Part shown: positions 38,917 to 52,795 of the stretch, piece after piece
Layout: each line of letters opens with the position of its first letter
Position numbering within the stretch: position 1 is the first letter of the stretch
Source: a virus
IMG/VR virus record: IMGVR_UViG_3300037313_001261
Coordinates: 783-64,782 of that record
Length of the DNA: 64,000 bases
Direction: 5' to 3' (one strand)
Made by a program: the position numbers and the translations under genes
Notes under the pieces: model-generated
What the model was told of the DNA's origin: nothing
Database searches by the model: none
Seen by the model: the letters and a program-made list of their open reading frames with translations, nothing else

Positions 38917-39186
38917 ATGTGCATTCAACCCCGCTGGGGCAATCTGATCTGGGTCGACGACGGCGATCTGGCCCGCATCCACGAGGACGGCACCTGCCTG
39001 CCGTTTGTCCCTTCGAGCACGGCATGGGCCAAGGTCGAGATCTACAGGAACGATGACGGCACCTACGAGTGGATGGAGTGGGAAAACTCCATGCAGGAGT
39101 GTGGTCTCGTGCGCGAACTGGATGGTCTCACCCCGCTCGAAGTCCAGTGTCTCCTGATGGAAACATTCCCTTACCCGGAGCGGTAA
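38917..39186 (+). CDS. Small paralog family member (RxxxLxW ... LEVQCLL)
   Basis: PRWGNLIW ... LTPLEVQCLLMETFPYPER, with the motif at both ends. Confidence 0.7.
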   Translation: MCIQPRWGNLIWVDDGDLARIHEDGTCLPFVPSSTAWAKVEIYRNDDGTYEWMEWENSMQECGLVRELDGLTPLEVQCLLMETFPYPER

Positions 39187-39190
39187 CATC

Positions 39191-39454
39191 ATGATGTGGA
39201 AAGATGTGCCGTGGGTGAAAACCCCTGGCGTGGGGGGCAATCTTGAGGGCAGTTTGGAGGCGGAGCTTACCACCAAGTCAGGTCTCGCCCTGATCCTCAA
39301 CCATTGGGCCGACGGTGACCTGTGGGTGGCGCTCTACACGCGCGACAAACCCTATCGTGGTGACGAAACCTACACGCCCGTCAAAGGCTGCAAGCATCAC
39401 CGGCTTGGCCCACTGGAGGCCCAGTGCCTGCTCAACGCTTACCTGGAGCGGTAA
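39191..39454 (+). CDS. Small paralog family member
   Basis: MMWKDVPW ... LGPLEAQCLLNAYLER. Confidence 0.75.
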   Translation: MMWKDVPWVKTPGVGGNLEGSLEAELTTKSGLALILNHWADGDLWVALYTRDKPYRGDETYTPVKGCKHHRLGPLEAQCLLNAYLER

Positions 39455-39455
39455 C

Positions 39456-39635
39456 ATGTTCACGATTGGACAGAAGGTCTATTCCAAACCCGTCGGCTGC
39501 GTGCCGAAGTTCAAGGGTGTCATCGTCGGCATGACCAAGGAATACATCGTGCGCGACGAAGCCGGCAACGAGTGGTCGCGTCATCCGCGCGAGCTGTTCG
39601 TGCCGGGAAGGAAACCCAAACATGCGGCTCGCTGA
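39456..39635 (+). CDS. Hypothetical small protein (SH3-like)
   Basis: MFTIGQKV...GVIVG, start directly after the motif. Confidence 0.55.
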   Translation: MFTIGQKVYSKPVGCVPKFKGVIVGMTKEYIVRDEAGNEWSRHPRELFVPGRKPKHAAR

Positions 39636-39876
39636 TCTGAAGTGGGAATATAGCGGGCACAACGGCGGCACGAGTAAGAGATGCCGTATAGATCTTAAAG
39701 ACGGCAAGTACATTACAATGCTTCACGCCTGCGGGGCCACGCCACCCTACTATAATATGTGTTTGTGGTATGCGAAGCGGGACATGGTTCCAGCTACTAA
39801 ACGCTATCACCTCGGCCCGCTCGAAGCCCAGTGCTTGCTGAACCATTACCTGGAGGGTAACGATGCGGCTGGCTGA
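39622..39876 (+). CDS. Small paralog family member
   Basis: MRLADLKW ... LGPLEAQCLLNHYLEG. Confidence 0.8.
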   Translation: MRLADLKWEYSGHNGGTSKRCRIDLKDGKYITMLHACGATPPYYNMCLWYAKRDMVPATKRYHLGPLEAQCLLNHYLEGNDAAG

Positions 39877-40096
39877 TCTGCCCTGGCAAAACGTCACCCA
39901 AGACGGCAAGGCGCAGCGTGCGGAGTTGCGCCGCAAGAATGGAATCAAGCGGGCGCATATCGTCAAGCGCGACTACAAGCCGGGGCAGGAGTACATGCTG
40001 TATCTCTATGGCCGGCGCGGCGGGCTCAAGAGGATGCACCTCGATATTGACGCGCTGACCTGCCAGTGCCTGTTGATTGACCATCTGCGGGACTGA
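39863..40096 (+). CDS. Small paralog family member
   Basis: MRLADLPW ... IDALTCQCLLIDHL. Confidence 0.8.
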   Translation: MRLADLPWQNVTQDGKAQRAELRRKNGIKRAHIVKRDYKPGQEYMLYLYGRRGGLKRMHLDIDALTCQCLLIDHLRD

Positions 40097-40133
40097 GGCG
40101 TAAACTTCTATCACCACCACAGGAACCCTAGTC

Positions 40134-40361
40134 ATGTTCACCACCATCGCCGTCGCGGCCAGCGTCGGGTTTATGGCCGGCTCGCTTGCCGGCATCCTGG
40201 CCGAGCGCATCCGTTTCAACCGTCTCATCAAGGCATCGCTCGTGCATGTGCCGGGCTTCCCGCGGCGCGTGGCGATCATCCATGAGCGTGAGCCCGAGCC
40301 CTATGGCGACGAGATCGACATTGAGATGGATCGGCGCCTGGCCCGCTTACCCCGGAGGTAA
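40134..40361 (+). CDS. Hypothetical membrane protein
   Basis: N-terminal hydrophobic helix. Stop codon lies in the motif TAA. Confidence 0.55.
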   Translation: MFTTIAVAASVGFMAGSLAGILAERIRFNRLIKASLVHVPGFPRRVAIIHEREPEPYGDEIDIEMDRRLARLPRR

Positions 40362-40363
40362 CG

Positions 40364-40675
40364 ATGCGGCTCGCTGATCTCGACTGGCACCCACGGGAGA
40401 ACGACCCCTATGAGAAAGCCGGAACCCCCAAGTGGCTGTATGCCGAGGTGCAGAAGCCCGGCACCAACACATGGGTGAGGGTGGCGCGCGCCACCGAGCA
40501 CAACTCCAGCTGGGCCGGGCGCTATTCCGTGCGCACTTACATAGGCCATCCCCTAGAGGGCCACATCACAAAAGCCTACGCCAACTTCGATACCGGGTAC
40601 TGCGACGCGCTCGAAGCGCAGTGCCTTCTCTACGAAATCTTCGCTACCCAGGAGGGTAACGATGCGGCTGGCTGA
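40364..40675 (+). CDS. Small paralog family member
   Basis: MRLADLDW ... CDALEAQCLLYEIF. Confidence 0.8.
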   Translation: MRLADLDWHPRENDPYEKAGTPKWLYAEVQKPGTNTWVRVARATEHNSSWAGRYSVRTYIGHPLEGHITKAYANFDTGYCDALEAQCLLYEIFATQEGNDAAG

Positions 40676-40916
40676 TCTGCCTTGGGTGCTCGACTCACAG
40701 GGCTACTGGATGAACTATTACCAGCAGCTGCCGGACGGCAACTGGCTCAACCTGCACCAGACACCAGCTGGCGTCGAGCCATACGAGTTCAAAGGTTACA
40801 TCTGCAACCAACACACCAACCGGGCCACCAACGCTTTCGAGATCCTGCGTGAAGTCGATGCGCTCGAAGCCCAGTGCCTTATCAACATGGAGCCCCATGA
40901 TGTGGCGCCTCAGTGA
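40662..40916 (+). CDS. Small paralog family member
   Basis: MRLADLPW ... VDALEAQCLIN. Confidence 0.8.
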   Translation: MRLADLPWVLDSQGYWMNYYQQLPDGNWLNLHQTPAGVEPYEFKGYICNQHTNRATNAFEILREVDALEAQCLINMEPHDVAPQ

Positions 40917-41181
40917 TCTCGCCTGGCGCGATACCACGTATTGGCTGGAGAGCAGTGAGGTTATGCTGCCCAAGGACTATTGGGTGCAGGTGTCGCAGAA
41001 CAAGAACACTAAGCTCTACAACATCCACTTTGGGCGCGGGCGGTATCCAATCATGAGCGAGTCCGACAAGTTCGAACTGCTCAAGAGCTGGGTCGGACTC
41101 GACCTCATCGAAGCCACCATCATCTTCAACCAAGCTCTCAACATGGAGCCACCACACCATGAAGAACGCCTTCCAGGATAA
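40897..41181 (+). CDS. Small paralog family member (divergent)
   Basis: MMWRLSDLAW ... LDLIEATIIFN. Confidence 0.7.
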   Translation: MMWRLSDLAWRDTTYWLESSEVMLPKDYWVQVSQNKNTKLYNIHFGRGRYPIMSESDKFELLKSWVGLDLIEATIIFNQALNMEPPHHEERLPG

Positions 41182-41512
41182 GTCCTCGCCTATCACGCCG
41201 ACGCTCGCCCAGGATGTGGACACGCTGTTCGCCAGCCTCGGGGTTGTTACCGATCCGGGTAAGCCGGCTCAAGCCTACGACGCCGCGGTGCAGGCGCTGA
41301 TTACCACCCACAACAAGCTGATCGCCCTCAAGGACGCGCTTGCCGCCCAGGCGGCGCGGCAGCGTGACGTCGATGAGCGCCAGGCCGCCATGGACGCTGA
41401 ACTCAATGCGCGCGAGGCGCGCCTCAACGCCCTCGATCTCCTGACCGGCCAGGTGATCGGGTTCGAGCAGAAGCCGGAGCAAGTGAGGAAGCCGTGGTTC
41501 CGCCGCGGCTGA
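41159..41512 (+). CDS. Hypothetical coiled-coil protein
   Basis: Heptad-rich, ends RKPWFRRG. Confidence 0.65.
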   Translation: MKNAFQDKSSPITPTLAQDVDTLFASLGVVTDPGKPAQAYDAAVQALITTHNKLIALKDALAAQAARQRDVDERQAAMDAELNAREARLNALDLLTGQVIGFEQKPEQVRKPWFRRG

Positions 41513-41538
41513 CCACCACCACCACCACCACCACCACC
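41512..41538 (+). repeat. (ACC)9 microsatellite in an intergenic leader
   Basis: Nine ACC units immediately before the motif copy at 41541. Confidence 0.9.
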
Positions 41539-41558
41539 GCTTACCGAGGAAGGTAACA

Positions 41559-41768
41559 GTGAAACCAGACCTGACGCCTAGCGTCATCTACACCAAGGAG
41601 GGCATCGTCATCCAGATCTACAAGGGCGACATGCAGGTGGAGCGCGTGCCTATCACGCTCGAGGGCGCCATGCTCACCCTGCGCGAGTTGACCGTCGCCA
41701 TTCACCGCGCCTTTATGGAGCAGCAACGCCTGAGAACAACGGAGCTTACCGATGCAGGTAACCCCTGA
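41559..41768 (+). CDS. Hypothetical protein
   Basis: GTG start after motif/RBS. Confidence 0.55.
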   Translation: MKPDLTPSVIYTKEGIVIQIYKGDMQVERVPITLEGAMLTLRELTVAIHRAFMEQQRLRTTELTDAGNP

Positions 41769-41964
41769 AATGGAGCAGGCCGGTGTGGAACTAGTTGAGG
41801 CCGTGCAGCGGTCCACCCGTCGAGAGACTGTTCTTGCCATGCGGGACGCGATAAGAAACGTACCCCACATGATGCGAACGGCGGCCGTTGCCGCCTGGTG
41901 CAACGAGTACGAGAACGACATGCGCGCTATCTTGTTGGAGCGCGAGAAAGAAGAAGGAGCATGA
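41752..41964 (+). CDS. Hypothetical protein
   Basis: Start lies inside the motif spacer. Coupled ORF. Confidence 0.5.
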   Translation: MQVTPEMEQAGVELVEAVQRSTRRETVLAMRDAIRNVPHMMRTAAVAAWCNEYENDMRAILLEREKEEGA

Positions 41965-42188
41965 ACGCACAGACGGCGCCACCCCTTGATCCGCGGACGA
42001 CTCACCCGTATTCGCAGATCATTCGCCGTGTCGACAAGAGCGCCCTACCCAGCGGGGTCATCGCGCTCTACCAGCCCGGCGACAATATCCTCCTGGTCGA
42101 TGCCTACTACTTCGACCTGGAGAGCGTGAGCATCCGCAACCTGATGCTGGCCTGCACCGACCGCGTGATGCTGTCGGACATTCTCTGA
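41961..42188 (+). CDS. Hypothetical protein
   Basis: AAGGAG RBS, ATGA overlap. Confidence 0.55.
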   Translation: MNAQTAPPLDPRTTHPYSQIIRRVDKSALPSGVIALYQPGDNILLVDAYYFDLESVSIRNLMLACTDRVMLSDIL

Positions 42189-42227
42189 TCCACCCACCAC
42201 CACTTACCTAGAAGGGTAACGTCTACC

Positions 42228-43319
42228 ATGAAGATCAACGATTTTCTCCGCGAAGCTCCCGACCTGCTCGACTCCGGCGTGTCCATCGAGCTGACCTCTG
42301 CGCCCGGCATCGGCAAGTCCGAGGGCGTCGATCAGCTGCTCCAGCGGATGCGCGCCCGGGACGGTGCGGATCAGTGGGGCTTTGCCACCATGTTCCTCGC
42401 CACCCAGACCCCGCCGGACCTGATCGGGTATCAGTTCAAGTCCGAGCGTATGGTCAACGGGGAACTCCGGGCCGTCACCGATCCGTCGATGCCGCTGTGG
42501 ATGACCACGGTGGACGGCAAGTCGGTGCTCGAATACCCACGGGGTATCCTGTTCCTCGACGAGTACGGACAGGGTGAGGCCGACGTCAAGCGCGCCTCGG
42601 CCGAGCTGTTGCTCAAGGGTGCGGTTGGCCCGTGGAAGTTGCCCAAGGGCTGGTCGGTGATCGCGGCCTCGAACCGCGCCAACGATCGCTCCGGCGTCAC
42701 CAAGTCGTTCGACTTCGTCATCAACCGCCGGGTCGAGATCCATATCGACGCCGACGTGGGCGCCTGGGAAACCTGGGCCTTCAAGAACGGGGTCGATCCG
42801 GTGCTCATCACCTTCGCGGTCCAGAACCCGAACATCGTCTTTGCCGGCGAGGTTCCGGACAAGCAGGGCCCGTGGTGCACGCCGCGCTCGCTCGTGCTGC
42901 TCGATCGGATGCTGCGTCCGAAGAAGGCGCGCCTGGGGCACTTCCCGGATGATCCGGTCACGACCGAGCTGGCAACCGGCATGATCGGGCCGTCGGCCGC
43001 CTCGCAGCTGATGGCGACGATCCGCCTATCACACGCGATGCCGAAGTACGCCGACATCATCGCCAACCCGAAGACGGCCAAGAAGCCGGACGCCCCCGAC
43101 GCGCAGATGCTGGTGGTGTACGAACTCGCCGGCCGTGTGGACGAGAGCGACGTCGATCCGATCATCCAGTACGTCGATCGGTTCCCGGCCGAGTTCGGAG
43201 TCACCTTCACCAAGGCGGCCGTCGCGCGCAACCCGATGCTCATCAACACCAACGCGTTCGGTGGCTGGTGCCAGAAGAATGCGTCGCTGATGAGCGCGAT
43301 CATCAACGCCGACGACTGA
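42228..43319 (+). CDS. AAA+ ATPase (MoxR / dynein-related type)
   Basis: Walker A APGIGKS, Walker B ILFLDE, sensor AASN, INRR and TPRS. Confidence 0.85.
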   Translation: MKINDFLREAPDLLDSGVSIELTSAPGIGKSEGVDQLLQRMRARDGADQWGFATMFLATQTPPDLIGYQFKSERMVNGELRAVTDPSMPLWMTTVDGKSVLEYPRGILFLDEYGQGEADVKRASAELLLKGAVGPWKLPKGWSVIAASNRANDRSGVTKSFDFVINRRVEIHIDADVGAWETWAFKNGVDPVLITFAVQNPNIVFAGEVPDKQGPWCTPRSLVLLDRMLRPKKARLGHFPDDPVTTELATGMIGPSAASQLMATIRLSHAMPKYADIIANPKTAKKPDAPDAQMLVVYELAGRVDESDVDPIIQYVDRFPAEFGVTFTKAAVARNPMLINTNAFGGWCQKNASLMSAIINADD

Positions 43320-43337
43320 TTACCGGGAGAGGTAACC

Positions 43338-43853
43338 ATGACCATGCACCCTGCGCCCCTCGTGGGCGCGGGGCTTTCAGCCGTGCACGCCAACACGCTG
43401 CAAGCTCTGAACGACATCTACGACGACTACCTCAAGACCGGGATCTATTTCACCCACGGCGACTGGTACGAACGCTTCGGTGAGACGCCCCTGCTCACGG
43501 TCTCGAGCACCCGCACCCACATGCGCGAGGTGGCCAAGGACCTCAAGCGCCCGTTCGTGGTGGTCGATGGCCGCCGGCACTGGCGCTCAGGTGGGGTCGA
43601 GGGGGAGTTCCAGGCCCAGGTCACACTGCCGCGCCAGAAGCAGACCCAGATCCTGATGACACCGATCTTCGTGATCGGGAAAGAAACGACTAACCGCTAC
43701 AGGGCCTCCGACAATGCGGTGTCGTACAAGGTGAGCGCAAGCGTCGCCTATGCCTGGTTCATCGGGGATATGGGCGCCAAGGCGTTCGAAGCCTGGTTCA
43801 AGTACACGCAGGAGCAGCCCGAATGCCGCAAGGTGCTAAAGCTCGACGTCTAG
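43338..43853 (+). CDS. Hypothetical protein
   Basis: 171 aa, starts after motif/RBS. Confidence 0.65.
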   Translation: MTMHPAPLVGAGLSAVHANTLQALNDIYDDYLKTGIYFTHGDWYERFGETPLLTVSSTRTHMREVAKDLKRPFVVVDGRRHWRSGGVEGEFQAQVTLPRQKQTQILMTPIFVIGKETTNRYRASDNAVSYKVSASVAYAWFIGDMGAKAFEAWFKYTQEQPECRKVLKLDV

Positions 43854-44077
43854 CTGACCTAGAGTGGCAGAGCTACAGTGTGGGGTGGGTCGTGTTCAAT
43901 ATCAGCGAGAGATATCGCCTGTTTAAGAACACCGGCGTCGCCAACCATAGCACCATCCCTCTTCATCACTACTGGATGTACGACGAGGACTCCCGCACCG
44001 GCAAGGTGCTCGGGCCGCTCGAAGCGCAATGTCTGCTCAACGCTTACCTGGAGGGTGACGATGTGGGACCAGATTAA
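43823..44077 (+). CDS. Small paralog family member
   Basis: RRLADLEW ... LGPLEAQCLLNAYLEG. Confidence 0.75.
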   Translation: MPQGAKARRLADLEWQSYSVGWVVFNISERYRLFKNTGVANHSTIPLHHYWMYDEDSRTGKVLGPLEAQCLLNAYLEGDDVGPD

Positions 44078-44387
44078 GTGGGAACACTATGCAGCCGGGT
44101 ATTGGGAAAAGCGTGGGCTTCTTAAACACCCGCAAGGCTGGGATCTGGTGATCTATAAAGCCAGGGAGAAAGAGATCTATCGGCTGCACCTGATCCCGCC
44201 TGGTGAAAGCACGATCTATGAAACAGAGGATGTCGATACTCTGTGGGACGCCGTGGCTCAACTCATGCGTCTGTGGGCCATCGACGTCACTTACGAGCGT
44301 TACGACACCCAGTTCACCCGGGCGTGGAAGCTAAAGAACGGATACTTCTACAACCCCGCTGACCATATCCGTTACCGAGAAGGGTAA
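44061..44387 (+). CDS. Small paralog family member (divergent)
   Basis: MWDQIKW ... VDTLWDAVAQL. Stop codon lies in the motif. Confidence 0.55.
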   Translation: MWDQIKWEHYAAGYWEKRGLLKHPQGWDLVIYKAREKEIYRLHLIPPGESTIYETEDVDTLWDAVAQLMRLWAIDVTYERYDTQFTRAWKLKNGYFYNPADHIRYREG

Positions 44388-44392
44388 AGCCA

Positions 44393-44641
44393 ATGGACCA
44401 CCCTGAGATTGCTAACGACACCTCGTTCGGCTCGAGCTACAAGCTCGAGATCCAGCTGCGCAACGGGGCGCTCACGCCCGAGCAGCGCATCGCGTTCCAC
44501 ACCGCCGTCATCAACGCGACGCGGATGCTACGGATGCAGCTCATGTTCGCCCTGCCCGACCAGAAGCTCGGCAAGGTCACGCTCGATCGCGTGTCGAGCG
44601 CCAGCGGCAAGAAGCCGGTGCCGTTCTTTGAGGAGGAGTGA
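44393..44641 (+). CDS. Hypothetical protein
   Basis: Starts after the motif. Confidence 0.6.
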   Translation: MDHPEIANDTSFGSSYKLEIQLRNGALTPEQRIAFHTAVINATRMLRMQLMFALPDQKLGKVTLDRVSSASGKKPVPFFEEE

Positions 44642-44880
44642 TGAAGCTCAGTGAGTTGGAGTGGTATCCATCACGGGCGAGCACATTTAGGGCCGCTTGT
44701 GCTCTACCTGGAGAGCGAGTCCTGACAATAGAAGAATACACCACTATTGAGCGGGGTATTCTTTATCAAATACGGGTGTTCCGGGGCGGGATCGCTATTG
44801 AGAAAACCCATGCTTGGCTTGGCCCCCTCGAAGCACAATGCTTGCTTAACAGTTACCTGGAGGGTAATCAATGGACGTAA
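44641..44880 (+). CDS. Small paralog family member
   Basis: MKLSELEW ... LGPLEAQCLLNSYLEG. Confidence 0.8.
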   Translation: MKLSELEWYPSRASTFRAACALPGERVLTIEEYTTIERGILYQIRVFRGGIAIEKTHAWLGPLEAQCLLNSYLEGNQWT

Positions 44881-45134
44881 GTAAATACACTCAGCTAAAG
44901 GTCGAGGTGGACATCAAGAACAACTTGATCTCCGAGACCAACAAGAACATCATCACCAAGCTGTTGCAGGACGCGATGACCGAATACTTGGTCAAAGCGG
45001 GACTGTTCGCAATGGGCGCCGTGTCGGTCACCATGACCAAGTGGGAAAACGGTGAAGAAACCATCGTTCCACTTGAGCCCGACGAGAACAGCTTTAAGCT
45101 GGGGAAGCCGACCAATGCTGCTCAAGGAGATTGA
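44871..45134 (+). CDS. Hypothetical protein
   Basis: Starts after motif/RBS. Confidence 0.6.
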   Translation: MDVSKYTQLKVEVDIKNNLISETNKNIITKLLQDAMTEYLVKAGLFAMGAVSVTMTKWENGEETIVPLEPDENSFKLGKPTNAAQGD

Positions 45135-45417
45135 GTGGACGAACACCAATAACGAGTACAGCAGCGTCCAGTACAGCCAGGATCTGCGGCGGATCTCCGA
45201 CGGCACCACCGGCTGGCGGCTGTATCTCCAGGATAAGAACTGGTACTGGCTGCAACGGGAGCGGGCGGACGACGGCTGGCCCACCCTGCTGCCGGCCAAC
45301 ATGTTCCATAACTACGACCTGTTCGAAGCCGTCTGCATGTTGGCCGACTTCGAGCCCTATCCACCCACCACCACTCTTACCGACGAAGGTAACCATGACG
45401 ACGAAACTCAAGTTTGA
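45115..45417 (+). CDS. Small paralog family member (divergent)
   Basis: MLLKEIEW ... YDLFEAVCML. Confidence 0.6.
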   Translation: MLLKEIEWTNTNNEYSSVQYSQDLRRISDGTTGWRLYLQDKNWYWLQRERADDGWPTLLPANMFHNYDLFEAVCMLADFEPYPPTTTLTDEGNHDDETQV

Positions 45418-46717
45418 CACCGAGAAGAAGCACGCGCCTATCACGCGCGACCAGCAGCTCACCAACAAGCAGAGCATCGAGTGGGAAAAGACCCGCGCGG
45501 CGTTCCTGACCAAGTGCCCGGCGTTCAGCCACGTGTTCTACACGCTCATGGCCAAGCACGCCGGTGAGCATCTCGCCGTGTTCACCTCCGGCGTGCCGAT
45601 CGCCGCCACCGACGGGCAGATGCTGTTCCTCAACGCCGACAAGTACTTTCCGCTCTCATTGCAAGAGCGGGTGTTTGTCATCGCCCACGAGGTCGCGCAC
45701 TGCATCTTCGATCATTGTGGCCTGATGCACGGCTATCGCCGCCGCGGCAAGATCAAGTACGCCGACGGCACGGAACTGGAGTACCACTCCGAGCTGATGA
45801 ATATTGCGACCGATCTCGTCATCAACGACATGCTGATCGAGTCGAAGATCGGCAAGTACAACAAGGACTGGCTGTACGACCCCTCGCTCGGGGTGTTCAC
45901 GGACTCGGTGATCGACGTCTACAAGAAGGTTTACAAGCAGGCCGAGAAGAACGGTGCGTTACCGAAGGGGGTAAGTTTCGACCTGCATCTGGCCCCCGGT
46001 GCCGGCAAGGGGCAGGACGCCAACACCGCCGTCAAGGAACGCGAGGCCATGACGCAGGAGTGGAAGGTGGCGGTCGCCGCCGGCATGGCTGCGGCCAAGG
46101 CCCAGGGCAAGCTGTCGGCCGGCCTCGAACGCTTGCTTGGCGACCAGATGGAACCCCAGGTCAGCTGGCAGGAGCACATTCAGGGCTTCTTTGCCCGCAA
46201 GGTGGGCTCGGGGTCGTACAACTGGCGCAAGCCCGACCGGCGCTTCATCGTCCGGCCGGAGCAGATGTACTCCCCGGGTCCGTCCGGCTTTGGCGCCGAG
46301 CATGTCGTGGTGCAGCTCGACACCTCGGGCTCGATCAACCAGGAGACGATCGACATGTTCCTGGCCGAGGTCGGCGGCATCCTGGAGGACGTTAGACCTA
46401 AGCGCATCACCGTGCTGTGGGTGGACTCCGAGATCGCCGGCATCGACGAGGTCGAGGAGGGTTCCGACCTGTCCAGCCTCAAGCCCAAGGGTGGTGGCGG
46501 CACCAACATGGCGCGCGCCTTCGAGTGGATTACCCAGCAGGGTATCGAGGATGAGATCGACTGCCTCCTGACGCTCACCGACGGCTACACGCCGTTCCCG
46601 CCATGCCCGTCCTACCCGGTGCTGTGGGGCTCGATCACCCCGGCCGGTAGCGTCACCTACCCGTTCGGCGAGGTGGTCTACATCCCGCAGCAGGCCAAGA
46701 AGAAGCGGGCGGCGTAA
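45395..46717 (+). CDS. Metallopeptidase-like (DUF2201-type) + VWA domain protein
   Basis: AATDG, HEVAH (HExxH), MIDAS DTSGS, GGGGT and LTDGY. ATG at 45395 follows the motif. Confidence 0.85.
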   Translation: MTTKLKFDTEKKHAPITRDQQLTNKQSIEWEKTRAAFLTKCPAFSHVFYTLMAKHAGEHLAVFTSGVPIAATDGQMLFLNADKYFPLSLQERVFVIAHEVAHCIFDHCGLMHGYRRRGKIKYADGTELEYHSELMNIATDLVINDMLIESKIGKYNKDWLYDPSLGVFTDSVIDVYKKVYKQAEKNGALPKGVSFDLHLAPGAGKGQDANTAVKEREAMTQEWKVAVAAGMAAAKAQGKLSAGLERLLGDQMEPQVSWQEHIQGFFARKVGSGSYNWRKPDRRFIVRPEQMYSPGPSGFGAEHVVVQLDTSGSINQETIDMFLAEVGGILEDVRPKRITVLWVDSEIAGIDEVEEGSDLSSLKPKGGGGTNMARAFEWITQQGIEDEIDCLLTLTDGYTPFPPCPSYPVLWGSITPAGSVTYPFGEVVYIPQQAKKKRAA

Positions 46718-46718
46718 C

Positions 46719-46982
46719 ATGCGGTATGCCCAGCTCACTCCGCTGGGGATCGCTGGTCTGGTGGGCGTCGGGATCTTTCTCGGCGCCCTCGCCTCGACCG
46801 GTAACCCCAACATCGCCTGGCCGCTCGTGCCGCTGCTGTGGATGGTCTACCTCGACGGCAAGGGCACCAACAACGGCGCTTATCACCGGGTCATGAACGG
46901 CTTCTGGTGGGTCGCCATCAATCCCCCCGGGCAGACCAAGACCGATATTACCACCAAGGGTAACGACGATGCGGCTGGCTGA
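46719..46982 (+). CDS. Hypothetical membrane protein
   Basis: Two hydrophobic segments. Confidence 0.55.
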   Translation: MRYAQLTPLGIAGLVGVGIFLGALASTGNPNIAWPLVPLLWMVYLDGKGTNNGAYHRVMNGFWWVAINPPGQTKTDITTKGNDDAAG

Positions 46983-47259
46983 CCTGAAATGGCGGCGGCA
47001 ACCCGATGGGTTTTGGGACAAGGCCATCGTCAGTGGCCAGGAAGTGATCCACATCTACCGCACGGTCAACGGCCAGCGGGATTGCGGTGGGTTTGGGTTT
47101 CGCCCCGGCCCGTACATCGTCATCGTCCCTCCCGATTTTGAAGGGCACGACGGCCTCTCGGCCGTCGAGGCTCAATGCCTCCTGTTCCACCACATGGGAG
47201 AGAACCATGAAACTGCTGAAGGATCTGAACTGGCAGAAGGTGAGCGATATCTGGGATAA
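46969..47259 (+). CDS. Small paralog family member
   Basis: MRLADLKW ... LSAVEAQCLLFHH. Confidence 0.75.
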   Translation: MRLADLKWRRQPDGFWDKAIVSGQEVIHIYRTVNGQRDCGGFGFRPGPYIVIVPPDFEGHDGLSAVEAQCLLFHHMGENHETAEGSELAEGERYLG

Positions 47260-47446
47260 AGCCTTCGTGTCCTCTAACGTCGTCCTGTTCCGCGCCACGC
47301 AAGACGACAACCCCTTCGGACCATATTTCCTGCGTGTGCTGCGGGATGACTTCGGTGAGCGTACCGACGATCGCGGCAATCTGAGCCCGCTCGAAGCCCA
47401 GTGCCTCCTATTCCATTACCTCGGGGGTAACGATGAAGCTCAGTGA
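47207..47446 (+). CDS. Small paralog family member
   Basis: MKLLKDLNW ... LSPLEAQCLLFHYLGG. Confidence 0.8.
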   Translation: MKLLKDLNWQKVSDIWDKAFVSSNVVLFRATQDDNPFGPYFLRVLRDDFGERTDDRGNLSPLEAQCLLFHYLGGNDEAQ

Positions 47447-47735
47447 TCTCGACTGGGACAACAGATTCTGGTCGCCGGCGCGGCAGATGTTCATCGTCGA
47501 CAATCCGGAGTGGCGCTACACCAAGCTGCGCGACGAGCCGCTGACATATCTCGCCACCACCAGTAACGAGGACGTCGAGGAGGGCTGGGGCCGGTTCGTG
47601 CTGATGACCTGGGATGCCCACCGCAAGCTCGGGTACCGTGTCGCTCCGGGCTGGCAGCTCAAGGATCACCTTGACGCGCTCGAAGCGCAGTGCCTCATCA
47701 ACCATTACCTCGGGGGTAACGATGATCCAGCTTAA
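47433..47735 (+). CDS. Small paralog family member
   Basis: MKLSDLDW ... LDALEAQCLINHYLGG. Confidence 0.8.
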   Translation: MKLSDLDWDNRFWSPARQMFIVDNPEWRYTKLRDEPLTYLATTSNEDVEEGWGRFVLMTWDAHRKLGYRVAPGWQLKDHLDALEAQCLINHYLGGNDDPA

Positions 47736-48207
47736 GAACATCATCTGGCAGCGCCGTGCCGATTCATTCCGGGTCTGGTATCCGTTCGGCCGTGACGGCG
47801 GTTCCTACGGCAATACCCGGGTGTACGAGTGGTTCGAAGTCACGCACGCCGGCAAGCTCAAGAGCCACTACGACATCTGCCTGCGGCGGCCGCACTTCGA
47901 GGAGGGTAAAACCATCGAGAACCTCGACGCCGTCACCTGCCAGGCGCTGCTCAACGAGTACTTCGGAGACAAGGAATGCCAAAACCTATCATGCTCCGCG
48001 ACCTCGACTGGTACGCCTTGCACCAATACAGCGGATTCTGCGCCAAAGCGTTCATCCAAATCCCACCAGGGGACAGAGGTTACCTTACCCTCTGGAAGCG
48101 AGACGATGAGCGCACCTACCGCTTCAAGCACCGCTACGGCAACCGCACGACTTTCGACCGTGAGGTGGACGCGCTCGAGGCGCAAGCACTCCTCAACGCT
48201 TACCTAG
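47722..48207 (+). CDS. Small paralog family member with long read-through tail
   Basis: MIQLKNIIW ... LDAVTCQALLNEYFG. The frame stays open across most of the next gene. Confidence 0.65.
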   Translation: MIQLKNIIWQRRADSFRVWYPFGRDGGSYGNTRVYEWFEVTHAGKLKSHYDICLRRPHFEEGKTIENLDAVTCQALLNEYFGDKECQNLSCSATSTGTPCTNTADSAPKRSSKSHQGTEVTLPSGSETMSAPTASSTATATARLSTVRWTRSRRKHSSTLT

Positions 48208-48230
48208 GGGGTAACGATGAGGCTGTGTGA
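47976..48230 (+). CDS. Small paralog family member
   Basis: MLRDLDW ... VDALEAQALLNAYLGG. Confidence 0.8.
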   Translation: MPKPIMLRDLDWYALHQYSGFCAKAFIQIPPGDRGYLTLWKRDDERTYRFKHRYGNRTTFDREVDALEAQALLNAYLGGNDEAV

Positions 48231-48438
48231 CCTCGACTGGAAGCCGTACCGCGTTGATGGCTCGGCCAAGCGGGCTACGTTGCTGATCAACGGGCGGTTG
48301 ATTGAGGTTTTCGCGTGGTCGGACGGGCTCTATGACTTGTACTGCGAGGTTGGCAACAAGGTTTACTACGACGTCGACCCGCTCAACGCGCAGTGTCTTC
48401 TCAACGCCCATGCGCAGGAACTGACCGATGCACCCTGA
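48217..48438 (+). CDS. Small paralog family member
   Basis: MRLCDLDW ... VDPLNAQCLLNAH. Confidence 0.8.
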   Translation: MRLCDLDWKPYRVDGSAKRATLLINGRLIEVFAWSDGLYDLYCEVGNKVYYDVDPLNAQCLLNAHAQELTDAP

Positions 48439-50173: not shown

Positions 50174-52063
50174 ATGCAAACCCATTACCTTATCCTCGAC
50201 TACGAGACTTTCTACAGCAAGGATTACTCCCTAAAGAAGCTTACCCCCGTTGAGTACGTTCTCGACCCCCGCTTTGAGGTGGTCGGCGTGGCGGCGATCG
50301 AGGGAATCAATGGACAAGCACAGTGGCTTGATCCGACCCAATTCCTGCAACTCCTCCTGAAATACCGGCGTTTGCAGTTGAATGGGGATAAAGTCGTGGT
50401 GATCACCCACAACGCCTTGTTCGACTGCTGCATCCTCCGTTGGAGGTACGGGTTTTTGCCGGATCTGATGATCGACACCCTGGGGATGGCGCGCGCCTTG
50501 GTGCAGGCGTTCACGAAGTCGTGCTCGCTCGCCGCGCTTGCCACCTACTACGGCCTGGCGCCCAAGGGCGGCACCGTCGCCAACGTCATCGGCATGACCC
50601 GGCAGGACATCATCCGCAACGGCCTGTGGGACGCCTACGGCGAGTACTCCTGCCACGACGCCGAGTTGTGCCGCGACATCTTCCTGCGTATGAAGGTCGA
50701 CTTTCCGAAGCAGGAATACCTGGTGATGGACACCGTGCTGCGCATGGCGGTGCAGCCCCGGTTCAAGCTCAACAGCAACCTGCTGGCGCAGTACCACAAC
50801 GAGGTCATCGTCGAGAAGGACGGCTTGCTGCAGAAGGCCGGGCTGTTCGACCGCGACCAGCTCATGTCGGACGAGATGTTCGCCCTGCTGCTGCGCGCCT
50901 ATGGCGTCGAGCCGGAAACCAAGATCTCGTTCAAGACCGGCAAGGAAACCTTTGCTTTTGCCAAGACCGACCAGTTCATGGCCGACCTTGAGGAGCACCC
51001 GGATCCCCGCGTGCAGGCGCTCGCCGCTGCCCGGCTCGGGCACAAGTCGACGATCGAGGAGACGCGCTCGAAGCGGATGCTCGATATCTCGCTGATTACC
51101 TGGCCGGGTAAGATCGGCACCGGGCTGTTCCCGATCCCCTTACGCTATGCCGGGGCGCACACCCACCGGCTCTCCGGCGACTGGAAGCTCAACGCCCAGA
51201 ACTGGGCCCGCGGCGGCACCATCCGCCGGGCGGTCGAGGCGCCCCCCGGGTACACCGTCGTGACCTGCGACGCATCGCAGATCGAGGCGCGCCTGGTGGC
51301 CTGGTTCTGCGGTCAGGATGACCTGGTGCAGGACTTCGCCAACCGGGTCGACATCTATTCCAAGTTCGCCGGCGAGGAGGTCTACCACTACCCGGTCGAC
51401 AAGAAGAACAACCCGGAGGAGCGCTTTGTCGGCAAGCAGGTCATCCTTGGCTGCGGCTTCGGCGTCGGCGGCAAGAAGTTCTGCACCATGATCAACACCC
51501 TCTCCCGCCTGCAGCTCGGCAAGGAGATGAACGCCACCGAGGACTGGGCCAAGACCGTCGTGAACGCTTACCGACGTCGGTATTCGAAGATCAAGGACGG
51601 CTGGGACTTCTTCACCCAGATGTTCCCGCAGCTCGCCAGCACGGACACGAACGTGCAGTGGGGCCCGATCACCTTCCACAAGCAGTACATCGAGGGCCCG
51701 ACGGGTCTCAAGCTGTTCTATCACAACTTGCGCCAGGAGGTGGTCAAGGGCTCGGTGTCGTGGGTGTGCGACTACGCCGGCCGGCGCAAGTTCCTGCACG
51801 GCGGGCTGATGATGGAGAACACCATCCAGCACCTCGCGCGCTGCTTCATCTTCGAGGTCGCGCTCGCCATGCGCAAGCGCTTCCCCGCGATCCAGCTCGC
51901 GCACCAGGTTCACGACGAGCTGATCTACCTCGTGCCGAATGCCCAAGTGGCGGAGTTCAAGCAAGCCCTTCTCGATCAGATGCGCACGCCTCCGGCCTGG
52001 GCCCCTGGGCTTCCGGTCGACGGCGAGGCGGGCGAGGGTGCCAACTACGGAGAAGCGAAGTGA
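50174..52063 (+). CDS. DNA polymerase family A with 3'-5' exonuclease
   Basis: Exo motifs LDYET and HNALFD, motif A DASQIEAR, motif B RFVGKQVILGCGFG, motif C QVHDE. Confidence 0.92.
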   Translation: MQTHYLILDYETFYSKDYSLKKLTPVEYVLDPRFEVVGVAAIEGINGQAQWLDPTQFLQLLLKYRRLQLNGDKVVVITHNALFDCCILRWRYGFLPDLMIDTLGMARALVQAFTKSCSLAALATYYGLAPKGGTVANVIGMTRQDIIRNGLWDAYGEYSCHDAELCRDIFLRMKVDFPKQEYLVMDTVLRMAVQPRFKLNSNLLAQYHNEVIVEKDGLLQKAGLFDRDQLMSDEMFALLLRAYGVEPETKISFKTGKETFAFAKTDQFMADLEEHPDPRVQALAAARLGHKSTIEETRSKRMLDISLITWPGKIGTGLFPIPLRYAGAHTHRLSGDWKLNAQNWARGGTIRRAVEAPPGYTVVTCDASQIEARLVAWFCGQDDLVQDFANRVDIYSKFAGEEVYHYPVDKKNNPEERFVGKQVILGCGFGVGGKKFCTMINTLSRLQLGKEMNATEDWAKTVVNAYRRRYSKIKDGWDFFTQMFPQLASTDTNVQWGPITFHKQYIEGPTGLKLFYHNLRQEVVKGSVSWVCDYAGRRKFLHGGLMMENTIQHLARCFIFEVALAMRKRFPAIQLAHQVHDELIYLVPNAQVAEFKQALLDQMRTPPAWAPGLPVDGEAGEGANYGEAK

Positions 52064-52326
52064 TGCAGTTCAAGGATCTCAAGTTCGCGCCATGGCGCGA
52101 CGACGCCGTTTGGCTGAGCAGCCAGCCGCTGCGCTACAAGGGCCAGGGCCCTGCGTTCCTGTTTCATGCGAAAGACTGGAAGTACGGCAAGAATGTTTTT
52201 GACCTCGATGTGGAGCGGTCAGACGGCAGCCTTAAGACGCTGCACGAGGATCTCAGTCTCTTGGAGCTCTGCGCCGGCATCCTGCCGTTCTGTGAGCTGC
52301 TACCCCAGGAGGTAACCGATGCTTGA
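52063..52326 (+). CDS. Hypothetical protein, possible outlying member of the paralog family
   Basis: MQFKDLKF ... LSLLELCAGIL, ends over a near-motif. Confidence 0.55.
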   Translation: MQFKDLKFAPWRDDAVWLSSQPLRYKGQGPAFLFHAKDWKYGKNVFDLDVERSDGSLKTLHEDLSLLELCAGILPFCELLPQEVTDA

Positions 52327-52549: not shown

Positions 52550-52577
52550 TTGACACCCCTATTCCAGCCCCCATAAT
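52550..52577 (+). promoter_or_regulatory. Sigma70-like promoter
   Basis: TTGACA-16 nt-CATAAT with an upstream A-tract. Confidence 0.6.
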
Positions 52578-52759
52578 AGCAACTTGGACGTAGAACCTTC
52601 CTTCCCGGTTCGGCTTCTATTTCCTCCCGGAATGCGAAAACTTGGTGAATGTTTAACATTCACCCCCTTTTCGCTTGTGTGCCCACCACGCAAACACAGG
52701 CGAAACCAGGGTCTAGTCAGGTCAAACTTGGATGTTACCCAGTCGGTAAACCGTTCCGT

Positions 52760-52795
52760 CCCCCCACCGGCCTTGCGCCGGTGGGGGGTCTTTTC
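52760..52795 (+). terminator. Intrinsic terminator
   Basis: ccccccaccggc-cttgc-gccggtgggggg followed by tctttt. Confidence 0.7.

Follow-up and report, generated by a model that had tools for sequence, protein, structure and literature searches.

An apparent lineage-specific expansion of a new family of small alpha+beta proteins in a soil phage

The multigene families of poxviruses and of African swine fever virus are lineage-specific expansions of a single fold, variable in copy number and linked to host interaction. In phages, the T-even internal proteins, i.e., IPI, IPII, and IPIII, are small and very diverse proteins that share a short fixed terminal segment, and PMC3012670 describes IPI* as a compact 76-residue inhibitor in which N- and C-terminal helices lie on either side of beta sheets, and holds that the group probably diversified against the defence enzymes of the host. 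The jumbo phages G and 121Q, with genomes larger than 200 kb, carry more than 30 similar tandem genes according to PMC5646251, and the T4-type hyperplastic regions contain PeSL cassettes, in which short regulatory motifs flank small variable genes and are proposed, in PMC2839356 and PMC4122927, to mediate modular shuffling. In this article we describe a set of 18 small genes located between positions 38,917 and 52,326 of a 64,000-nucleotide stretch of the virus record IMGVR_UViG_3300037313_001261 (positions 783 to 64,782 of the record, hereafter the window), which appears to be a lineage-specific expansion of one new small-protein family in a soil phage. The record has 64,782 bases, the virus is rated complete by CheckV, and the sole sequencing run listed with it is of DNA from a soil metagenome that may be its source, with no RNA run listed.

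Like the T-even internal proteins, the products of this family are small and very diverse and have a short fixed terminal segment, but here both ends are fixed and belong to the predicted fold, the genes lie in a replication module, and no sequence match joins the two groups. The likeness to phages G and 121Q is the tandem duplication of one small gene, whereas the copies of those phages are very similar and the paralogs described here share at most 38% identity, occupy three slots of a 65-kb genome, and in part have orthologues in kindred phages. The trait in common with the PeSL cassettes is that short regulatory motifs flank small variable genes; unlike them, the motif of this genome is a palindrome of 15–16 nucleotides (nt) with a ribosome site in its spacer, it also occurs inside coding sequence genome-wide, and the flanked genes are mutually homologous. 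The poxvirus and African swine fever virus families belong to another virus realm, have other folds, and serve as an analogy only.

All 18 genes, named here by their first nucleotide, are open reading frames (ORFs) with an ATG start on the + strand and encode proteins of 73–108 residues, except for 47722 (161 residues); together they make up about 5.06 kb, or about 8% of the genome with overlaps counted. Membership was tested with leave-one-out profiles (Z=1400), which gave E-values from 2e-17 to 2e-9 for 13 of the 18, values of about 1e-4 for 38917 and 40897, and marginal values of 0.11–0.28 for 44061, 45115, and 52063. From these profiles and pairwise matches we would count 15 members as solid, one (45115) as probable, and two (44061 and 52063) as marginal, and a profile built from the 18 found no additional member among the six-frame ORFs of at least 40 residues in the window. 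The alignment has a shared N-terminal (M)RLxDLxW and, close to the C-terminus, L-[DG]-[AP]-LEAQCLL-N-x-YL, with L3, W8, and Q70 conserved at 90% or more across 40 sequences and no other position so fixed. An earlier, sequence-only reading had claimed a single array of some 17–18 small paralogs with shared N- and C-terminal motifs. The paralogs are all present on the + strand, 13 of them with strong profile support, and so are the motifs, but the array is split into three clusters (38917–41181, 43823–45417, and 46969–48438), with 52063 apart and other genes interleaved.

The nucleotide entropy of the LEAQCLL stretch, taken over 14 of the 18 members because the helix motif of 40897, 44061, 45115, and 52063 is too divergent, is 0.86–1.57 bits at codon position 3 and 0–0.95 bits at positions 1 and 2, and RLADL behaves likewise, with varying third positions and constant amino acids. 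The junction copies have at least 60% DNA identity to the reference copy, and 63–78% in the 78-nt family. Because third codon positions vary and the junction copies share only 60% or more of their bases, RLxDLxW and the LEAQCLL helix are held by selection at the protein level, and not by a DNA repeat or by recent gene conversion.

The tail YL(E/G)GN(D), which follows the helix, is encoded by TTACC-N5-GGTAAC, a variant of the genome-wide palindrome TTACC-N5/6-GGTAA. The N6 form of this palindrome has 58 matches with at most one mismatch against 0.35 expected, and the window holds 68 perfect N5 or N6 copies, some of which lie inside left-arm coding sequence. In the region from 36 to 62.5 kb, a start codon follows within 14 nt of the end of 21 among 36 perfect copies, eight ahead of family genes and 13 ahead of non-family genes, including those of an ATPase, a DUF2201 protein, and a nuclease; the spacer is purine-rich (GGAG, GAGG) and lies at the position of a ribosome-binding site. 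Stop and start overlap by 11–20 nt between family genes (14 nt at seven junctions that join two family genes or lead into one, 53 nt at 46969/47207), and the last residues (DAAG, DEAQ, and the like) derive from the overlap with ATGCGGCTGGCTGA of the next gene. Members from kindred loci that are poor in palindromes have other tails, e.g., ...ILNDVFQRYG or ...VLYMLLEKYPEK. Since the palindrome also precedes non-family genes and palindrome-poor kin end differently, the final 5–10 residues are a by-product of the palindrome, ribosome site, and start codon of the following gene, which is not the case for the helix or the N-terminus. As a result, the fixed C-terminus of the sequence-only reading divides into a LEAQCLL helix that is selected as protein and a YLEGND/AAG tail that does not, and the caveat attached to it, namely that the conserved residues might be only a by-product of a DNA repeat, applies to the last 5–10 residues but not to the helix and the N-terminus, given their synonymous variation. 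The palindrome itself is a deeply conserved signal of the phage lineage, distributed independently of the protein family.

The predicted structures are consistent with a common fold. AlphaFold2, supplied with a 40-row family alignment, models the 39622 product (P0001) with a predicted local distance difference test score (pLDDT) of 89.2 and a predicted template modelling score (pTM) of 0.78; in this model a short helix at the N-terminus precedes strands at residues 9–11, 18–24, 29–36, 43–50, and 59–64 and a C-terminal helix at 66–78. For the 47433 product (P0004) the scores are pLDDT 78.4 and pTM 0.68; its elements follow the same order and its loops are longer, so that both modelled members run from a short N-terminal helix through a beta-meander to a C-terminal helix, in line with the common scaffold that had been proposed. 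For P0001, the single-sequence model of the ESM Atlas (pTM 0.76) gives support that is independent of a multiple sequence alignment (MSA). Leave-one-out profiles restricted to the middles score at least 9.9 bits for seven of the 18 window rows and 17 of the 22 outside rows, the maximum among shuffles being 9.8 (392 scored). Judged from these profiles and models, the middles are very divergent yet homologous versions of an anciently diverged beta-meander; the earlier description of them as beta-rich agrees with the AlphaFold models, but their description as unrelated does not agree with the middle-only profiles and the common topology. The alignment contains no residue pattern resembling a catalytic or metal site, since its near-invariant residues are limited to L3, W8, and Q70, and relatives have A, L, V, or I in place of the Cys of LEAQCLL. 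The family is predicted to consist of small (about 75–105 residues), soluble, single-domain alpha+beta proteins.

A match to a characterised family, an outcome that the sequence-only reading had named as one that would refute it, was sought in several sequence libraries and did not occur. Ten window members had nothing below E 0.04 in Pfam and PHROGs; when 42 members were searched singly in Pfam, no family was matched by more than one of them at E ≤10; the same 42 had no match at E ≤0.01 in PHROGs v4 and NCBIfam 20; and PDB sequences gave no match to the family profile at E ≤10. The family had been described as unrecognised and, being absent from the curated libraries (Pfam, PHROGs, and NCBIfam), it is probably new. 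Structure comparison led to a similar picture, as Foldseek against the PDB returned no row at E ≤1e-3, and the best two BFVD neighbours of the P0001 model are the uncharacterised phage proteins A0A516MDW0 (TM 0.75/0.70) and A0A6J5L6V2, which recur for the P0004 model at ranks 16 and 48; the ESM Atlas likewise yielded no relative that is characterised. In the VIA wide fold search the best row was YkuJ (2ffg) with Z 6.3, where Z below 8 is the noise range of the tool for unmatched models. The sheet-plus-C-terminal-helix arrangement of YkuJ, of the KhtT N-domain (7agw), of small immunity or inhibitor proteins, and of WGR domains aligns over 65–77 residues at Z 4.3–6.3, within that range, and with 2–12% identity; the small immunity and inhibitor proteins and the four WGR-domain rows are found at Z 4.3–5.5, the WGR rows themselves at 4.3–4.9. 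The WGR domain (PF05406) was considered as a candidate and set aside, as hhalign against seven bacterial WGR domains gave a probability of 0.1% (with a narrow template, effective number of sequences 2.8), the 42 members have no WGR match, and the family alignments have no W-G-R column. T4 IPI* is absent from the 50 fold rows shown, which leaves a resemblance possible. In the literature, no paper was found on the family or on the small genes of Rhizobium phage RHph_TM3_14A, although supplementary files could hold Rhizobium phage gene tables; the available text of PMC13611946 mentions other RHph phages, not this one.

Relatives of the family are few and come from the environment. A profile search of 1.84 billion representative proteins at E ≤1e-3 returned 40 matches, i.e., 17 from the genome itself, 22 foreign ones, and P0018, a repeat protein of 1797 residues that was matched over four stretches and set aside as a repeat-driven chance match; the 52063 product (P0013) was listed by a profile that itself contained it. 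Twenty of the 22 foreign relatives were traced, all to metagenomic singletons (JGI, Logan, and ENA), one of which is also filed under a Xanthobacteraceae metagenome-assembled genome (MAG). Neither a megablast of the 38–53 kb region nor tblastn of P0002 and P0003 (E ≤1) found a match in GenBank phages, scans of IMG/VR with the DUF2201 protein, P0028, P0024, and two DNA patterns found only one chance locus (L006), and a metagenome scan with the junction pattern found two chance loci (L007 and L008) and no member.

The phage itself has many kin. Metagenomes contain over 1,200 proteins related to its DUF2201 protein, with identities near 50% and in many cases on contigs of about 60 kb (58–63 kb); this phage group is therefore abundant in sampled environments and hardly represented among cultured phages. 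Through these relatives, 12 loci were fetched from bacterial assemblies, namely Bradyrhizobium isolates, Pseudolabrys and Xanthobacteraceae MAGs, and contigs binned to other phyla. The loci that are long enough have a syntenic backbone of ATPase, DUF2201, PolA, and PD-(D/E)XK nuclease genes at 40–55% identity, and the cultured Rhizobium phage RHph_TM3_14A (L001) has the same backbone. Family members number two in L010 (three at a looser threshold), six or seven in L012, of which L013 is an identical second copy, five in L014, and three in L015; the family profile found no member in L011 and L016–L021, nor in the 32 of 61 kb examined of RHph_TM3_14A or the 39 of 64 kb examined of KPP25. Whole-genome scans of the four positive assemblies confined the members to the phage contig, and kin members always lie upstream of the ATPase gene, between the ATPase and DUF2201 genes, or between the DUF2201 and PolA genes, the same three slots that hold seven, four, and six members in this phage. 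Here the paralogs fill variable slots between the conserved replication-module genes p254, MoxR-like ATPase (42228–43319), DUF2201 metallopeptidase/VWA (45395–46717, Pfam DUF2201_N + DUF2201), and PolA, with both the ATPase and the DUF2201 gene lying between family clusters. Tandem expansion is evident in the 15–18 members found here against 0–7 in nine kin loci, and the comparison of copy number and order that had been suggested for related phages thus yields 0–7 members in the same slots of a syntenic backbone. Because of these variable counts and constant slots, the family is an accessory one that fills hyperplastic slots, and its largest expansion seen is the one in this phage. The (pro)phage kin also include a Bradyrhizobium contig of 60.6 kb, a Pseudolabrys MAG in which a single contig carries two identical copies separated by 62 kb, and the Xanthobacteraceae MAGs; from their sequences, the kin assemblies point to a host of the Bradyrhizobium/Xanthobacteraceae type and to a temperate or episomal lifestyle. 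Copies of the palindrome number 23 in 32 kb of RHph_TM3_14A and 24 in the 21-kb locus L017, with none in KPP25 and 0–7 in the remaining kin loci.

The paralogs are old. The nearest pair within the genome, the neighbours 46969 and 47207, are 38% identical, 12 of the 18 members have their best BLASTP match outside the genome, and P0002 (the 40364 product) is 46% identical to the metagenomic P0019 over its whole length, middle included. On these grounds the divergence of the paralogs predates the split of these phage lineages, and some of the middles, at least, are under purifying selection of their own; since the middle is kept in its own orthologue, a paralog-specific function is favoured over ongoing scrambling. 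The hypervariability that the sequence-only reading ascribed to the middles is therefore not borne out as active diversification. Targets of a diversity-generating retroelement were also considered: the 64.8-kb genome has no RVT_1 match, the longest direct-repeat families in the 38–53 kb region are at most 78 nt long at 60% identity or more to the reference copy, with no long near-identical repeat, and hypervariation driven by a retroelement is excluded because the genome lacks a reverse transcriptase.

As to how the family might work, the conserved N-terminal strand and C-terminal helix would form a clasp that holds the fold together, and the termini may also form a shared surface, with the surface of sheet and loops differing from paralog to paralog. 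The tightly packed + strand genes could form a single long transcription unit, and their products would then be a co-expressed battery of small soluble proteins, i.e., stoichiometric binders, inhibitors, or modulators with one target per paralog, the targets being either host proteins of defence or takeover or proteins of the phage. A role as binder is suggested because the proteins are small and without enzyme signature, their distribution is accessory (0 to 18 copies), and their genes lie among early and replication genes, which are the usual marks of phage binding proteins. By this analogy, the binding of one host or phage protein by each paralog is the most likely function, at a probability that we would place a little short of an even chance. 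A number of points weigh against it. The functional assignment is made by analogy, and the isoelectric points of the members, which span 4.1 to 9.9, point to no single binding mode such as DNA mimicry. The structural neighbours are all uncharacterised phage proteins or PDB rows at noise level (best Z 6.3), four of the 18 window middles (P0004, P0006, P0012, and P0013) are without any profile match, and the single-sequence ESM Atlas model of P0004 is poor (pTM 0.26), so that the fold of P0004 rests on the MSA-driven AlphaFold2 model. Moreover, L011, L017, L018, and L001 keep the backbone without the family, which fits an accessory role and is silent on which one, and a scan for promoters and terminators counted no more of them than in shuffled sequence, which leaves the single-operon picture weak.

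Other explanations have to be weighed against the one-target-per-paralog reading. The ends could matter mainly as DNA or RNA, i.e., as a junction repeat for recombination (gain, loss, and shuffling of cassettes) or for regulation, with proteins that share no function. It is true that the junction, composed of the helix-coding end, the palindrome, and the start, is repeated and that the tail is dictated by the palindrome and ribosome-binding site, that one junction pair shares 31 identical nt and other pairs 24, 23, 21, and 20, and that copy number differs widely among kin, but this explanation is improbable in view of the third codon positions that vary in LEAQCLL and RLADL, the motifs that persist in kin loci with few palindromes and other tails, the fewer than 15 identical nt in 123 of 143 gene-pair comparisons, and the termini that are confidently modelled within the predicted fold. 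By analogy with what is proposed for the PeSL cassettes, the identities of 20–31 nt at a few junctions could nonetheless aid the gain and loss of copies. Just as improbable is a single hetero-oligomeric phage complex for the control of replication or transcription, in which the members would be subunits joined through their conserved termini as in paralog rings: the 11–20 nt overlaps (53 nt at 46969/47207) do suggest coupled and roughly equimolar translation, and the termini are conserved and the faces variable, yet 0 to 18 copies among kin sharing one backbone are hard to fit to a fixed complex.

The members might also be a library of adaptors, whose conserved N- and C-terminal face docks onto a common hub, the pair of MoxR-like ATPase and DUF2201 protein, and whose variable sheet brings host proteins for remodelling or cleavage. 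If this were true, one machine would suffice to remodel or cleave an entire set of host factors, and the 18 copies would record the breadth of targets met. The genes of the pair lie between the clusters, kin members keep to slots around both, and the most conserved non-hydrophobic residues, D/E5 and Q70, sit in the termini; but L011, L017, L018, and L001 have the pair without any member, from which it follows that the pair does not need the family, and an early-region position is expected of any accessory gene. The predicted complex of the DUF2201 protein with P0001 scored 0.00, which, as a run without controls, counts neither for nor against binding, and on balance we consider adaptors very unlikely. 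The slightest probability goes to proteins that are packaged in the virion and injected, with an N-terminus serving as a signal for capsid targeting and protease processing and with bodies that are diverse anti-restriction proteins. The layout resembles that of the T4 internal proteins, which PMC3012670 presents as diverse small inhibitors with a common short N-terminal signal, and many members have L-x-[DE]-L at residues 3–6. Nevertheless, the genes are in a replication module and not with head genes, the N-terminus, whose W8 hardly varies, is modelled as integral to the domain at pLDDT 92–96, and a leader signal leaves the conservation of the C-terminus unexplained.

The individual genes of the first cluster begin with 38917..39186 (89 residues, moderate support at E 1.2e-4), which ends in ...FPYPER and has a palindrome copy over its last codons and stop, followed by 39191..39454 (87 residues, E 5.5e-10), which ends in LEAQCLLNAYLER. 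P0001, at 39622..39876 (84 residues, E 4e-17), overlaps by 14 nt the next member, 39863..40096 (77 residues, E 3e-12), which is basic with an isoelectric point of 9.9. P0002, at 40364..40675 (103 residues), is supported by the leave-one-out profile and by BLASTP to its orthologue P0019, and the cluster closes with 40662..40916 (84 residues, E 3e-10) and 40897..41181 (94 residues), whose support is moderate (E 1.3e-4) and whose divergent helix reads LIEATIIFNQAL. In the second cluster, 43823..44077 (84 residues, E 5e-12) has an N-terminal extension of eight residues and an uncertain start, as a shorter version with a GTG start (P0025) exists in the protein collection. It is followed by the marginal 44061..44387 (108 residues, E 0.11), which has a C-terminal extension and no good BLASTP match, by 44641..44880 (79 residues, E 3.5e-11), and by the probable member 45115..45417 (100 residues, E 0.17), which is very acidic and matches the outside protein P0027 over its full length (BLASTP E 1e-4).

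The third cluster starts with 46969..47259 (96 residues, supported by leave-one-out and BLASTP), whose nearest partner in the genome is 47207..47446 (79 residues, E 2e-17), and continues with P0004 at 47433..47735 (100 residues, leave-one-out support), the second member modelled. In 47722..48207 the domain covers about the first 86 of 161 codons (E 2e-9 for codons 1–86); this ORF lacks the usual stop and palindrome and reads on for 75 codons over the next member in another frame, and this could be a genuine extension or else the result of a recent mutation or of faulty assembly. The real start of 47976..48230 (84 residues, E 5e-12) may be an internal ATG 15 nt downstream, giving 79 residues as in P0010, and the cluster ends with 48217..48438 (73 residues, E 5e-12). 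The marginal P0013, at 52063..52326 (87 residues, E 0.28), directly follows the DNA polymerase gene.

Around the family, the + strand carries replication genes, i.e., those for the DUF2201_N + DUF2201 protein, PolA, PDDEXK, an SNF2 helicase, and a DUF927 primase-like protein, and the clusters are interleaved with the ATPase, DUF2201, and PolA genes as well as with unrelated small genes at 39456–39635, 40134–40361, 44393–44641, 44871–45134, and 46719–46982. Two of these non-family small genes encode apparent membrane proteins, and the interleaved non-family genes have the same palindrome and ribosome-binding site and the same 14-nt stop/start overlap, e.g., ...KHAAR* over ATGCGGCTCGCTGA. After the last member, 52760–52788 is the sole long GC-rich terminator-like hairpin on the + strand within 35–54 kb; its stem is 12 bp, and upstream of it, at 52550–52577, lies a near-consensus sigma-70-like promoter, TTGACA-16-CATAAT, that matches at 11 of 12 positions. 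The stretch 52550–52790 has no convincing ORF and no Rfam match, and may encode a small RNA or mark where the long rightward operon ends; Rfam and tRNA scans of the whole window gave no match.

The main reservoir of activities for host takeover and anti-defence lies in small uncharacterised phage proteins, and a family of 15–18 members with one predicted scaffold and many surfaces would be a compact natural panel for the study of phage–host protein contacts, here in the agriculturally relevant Bradyrhizobium/Xanthobacteraceae group. The separation of conservation at the protein level from that at the DNA level at gene ends is also a caution whenever 'fixed termini' are interpreted in phages with compact genomes. 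Experiments on this family are feasible thanks to the kin in cultured Bradyrhizobium isolates and to the palindrome that a cultured Rhizobium phage shares.

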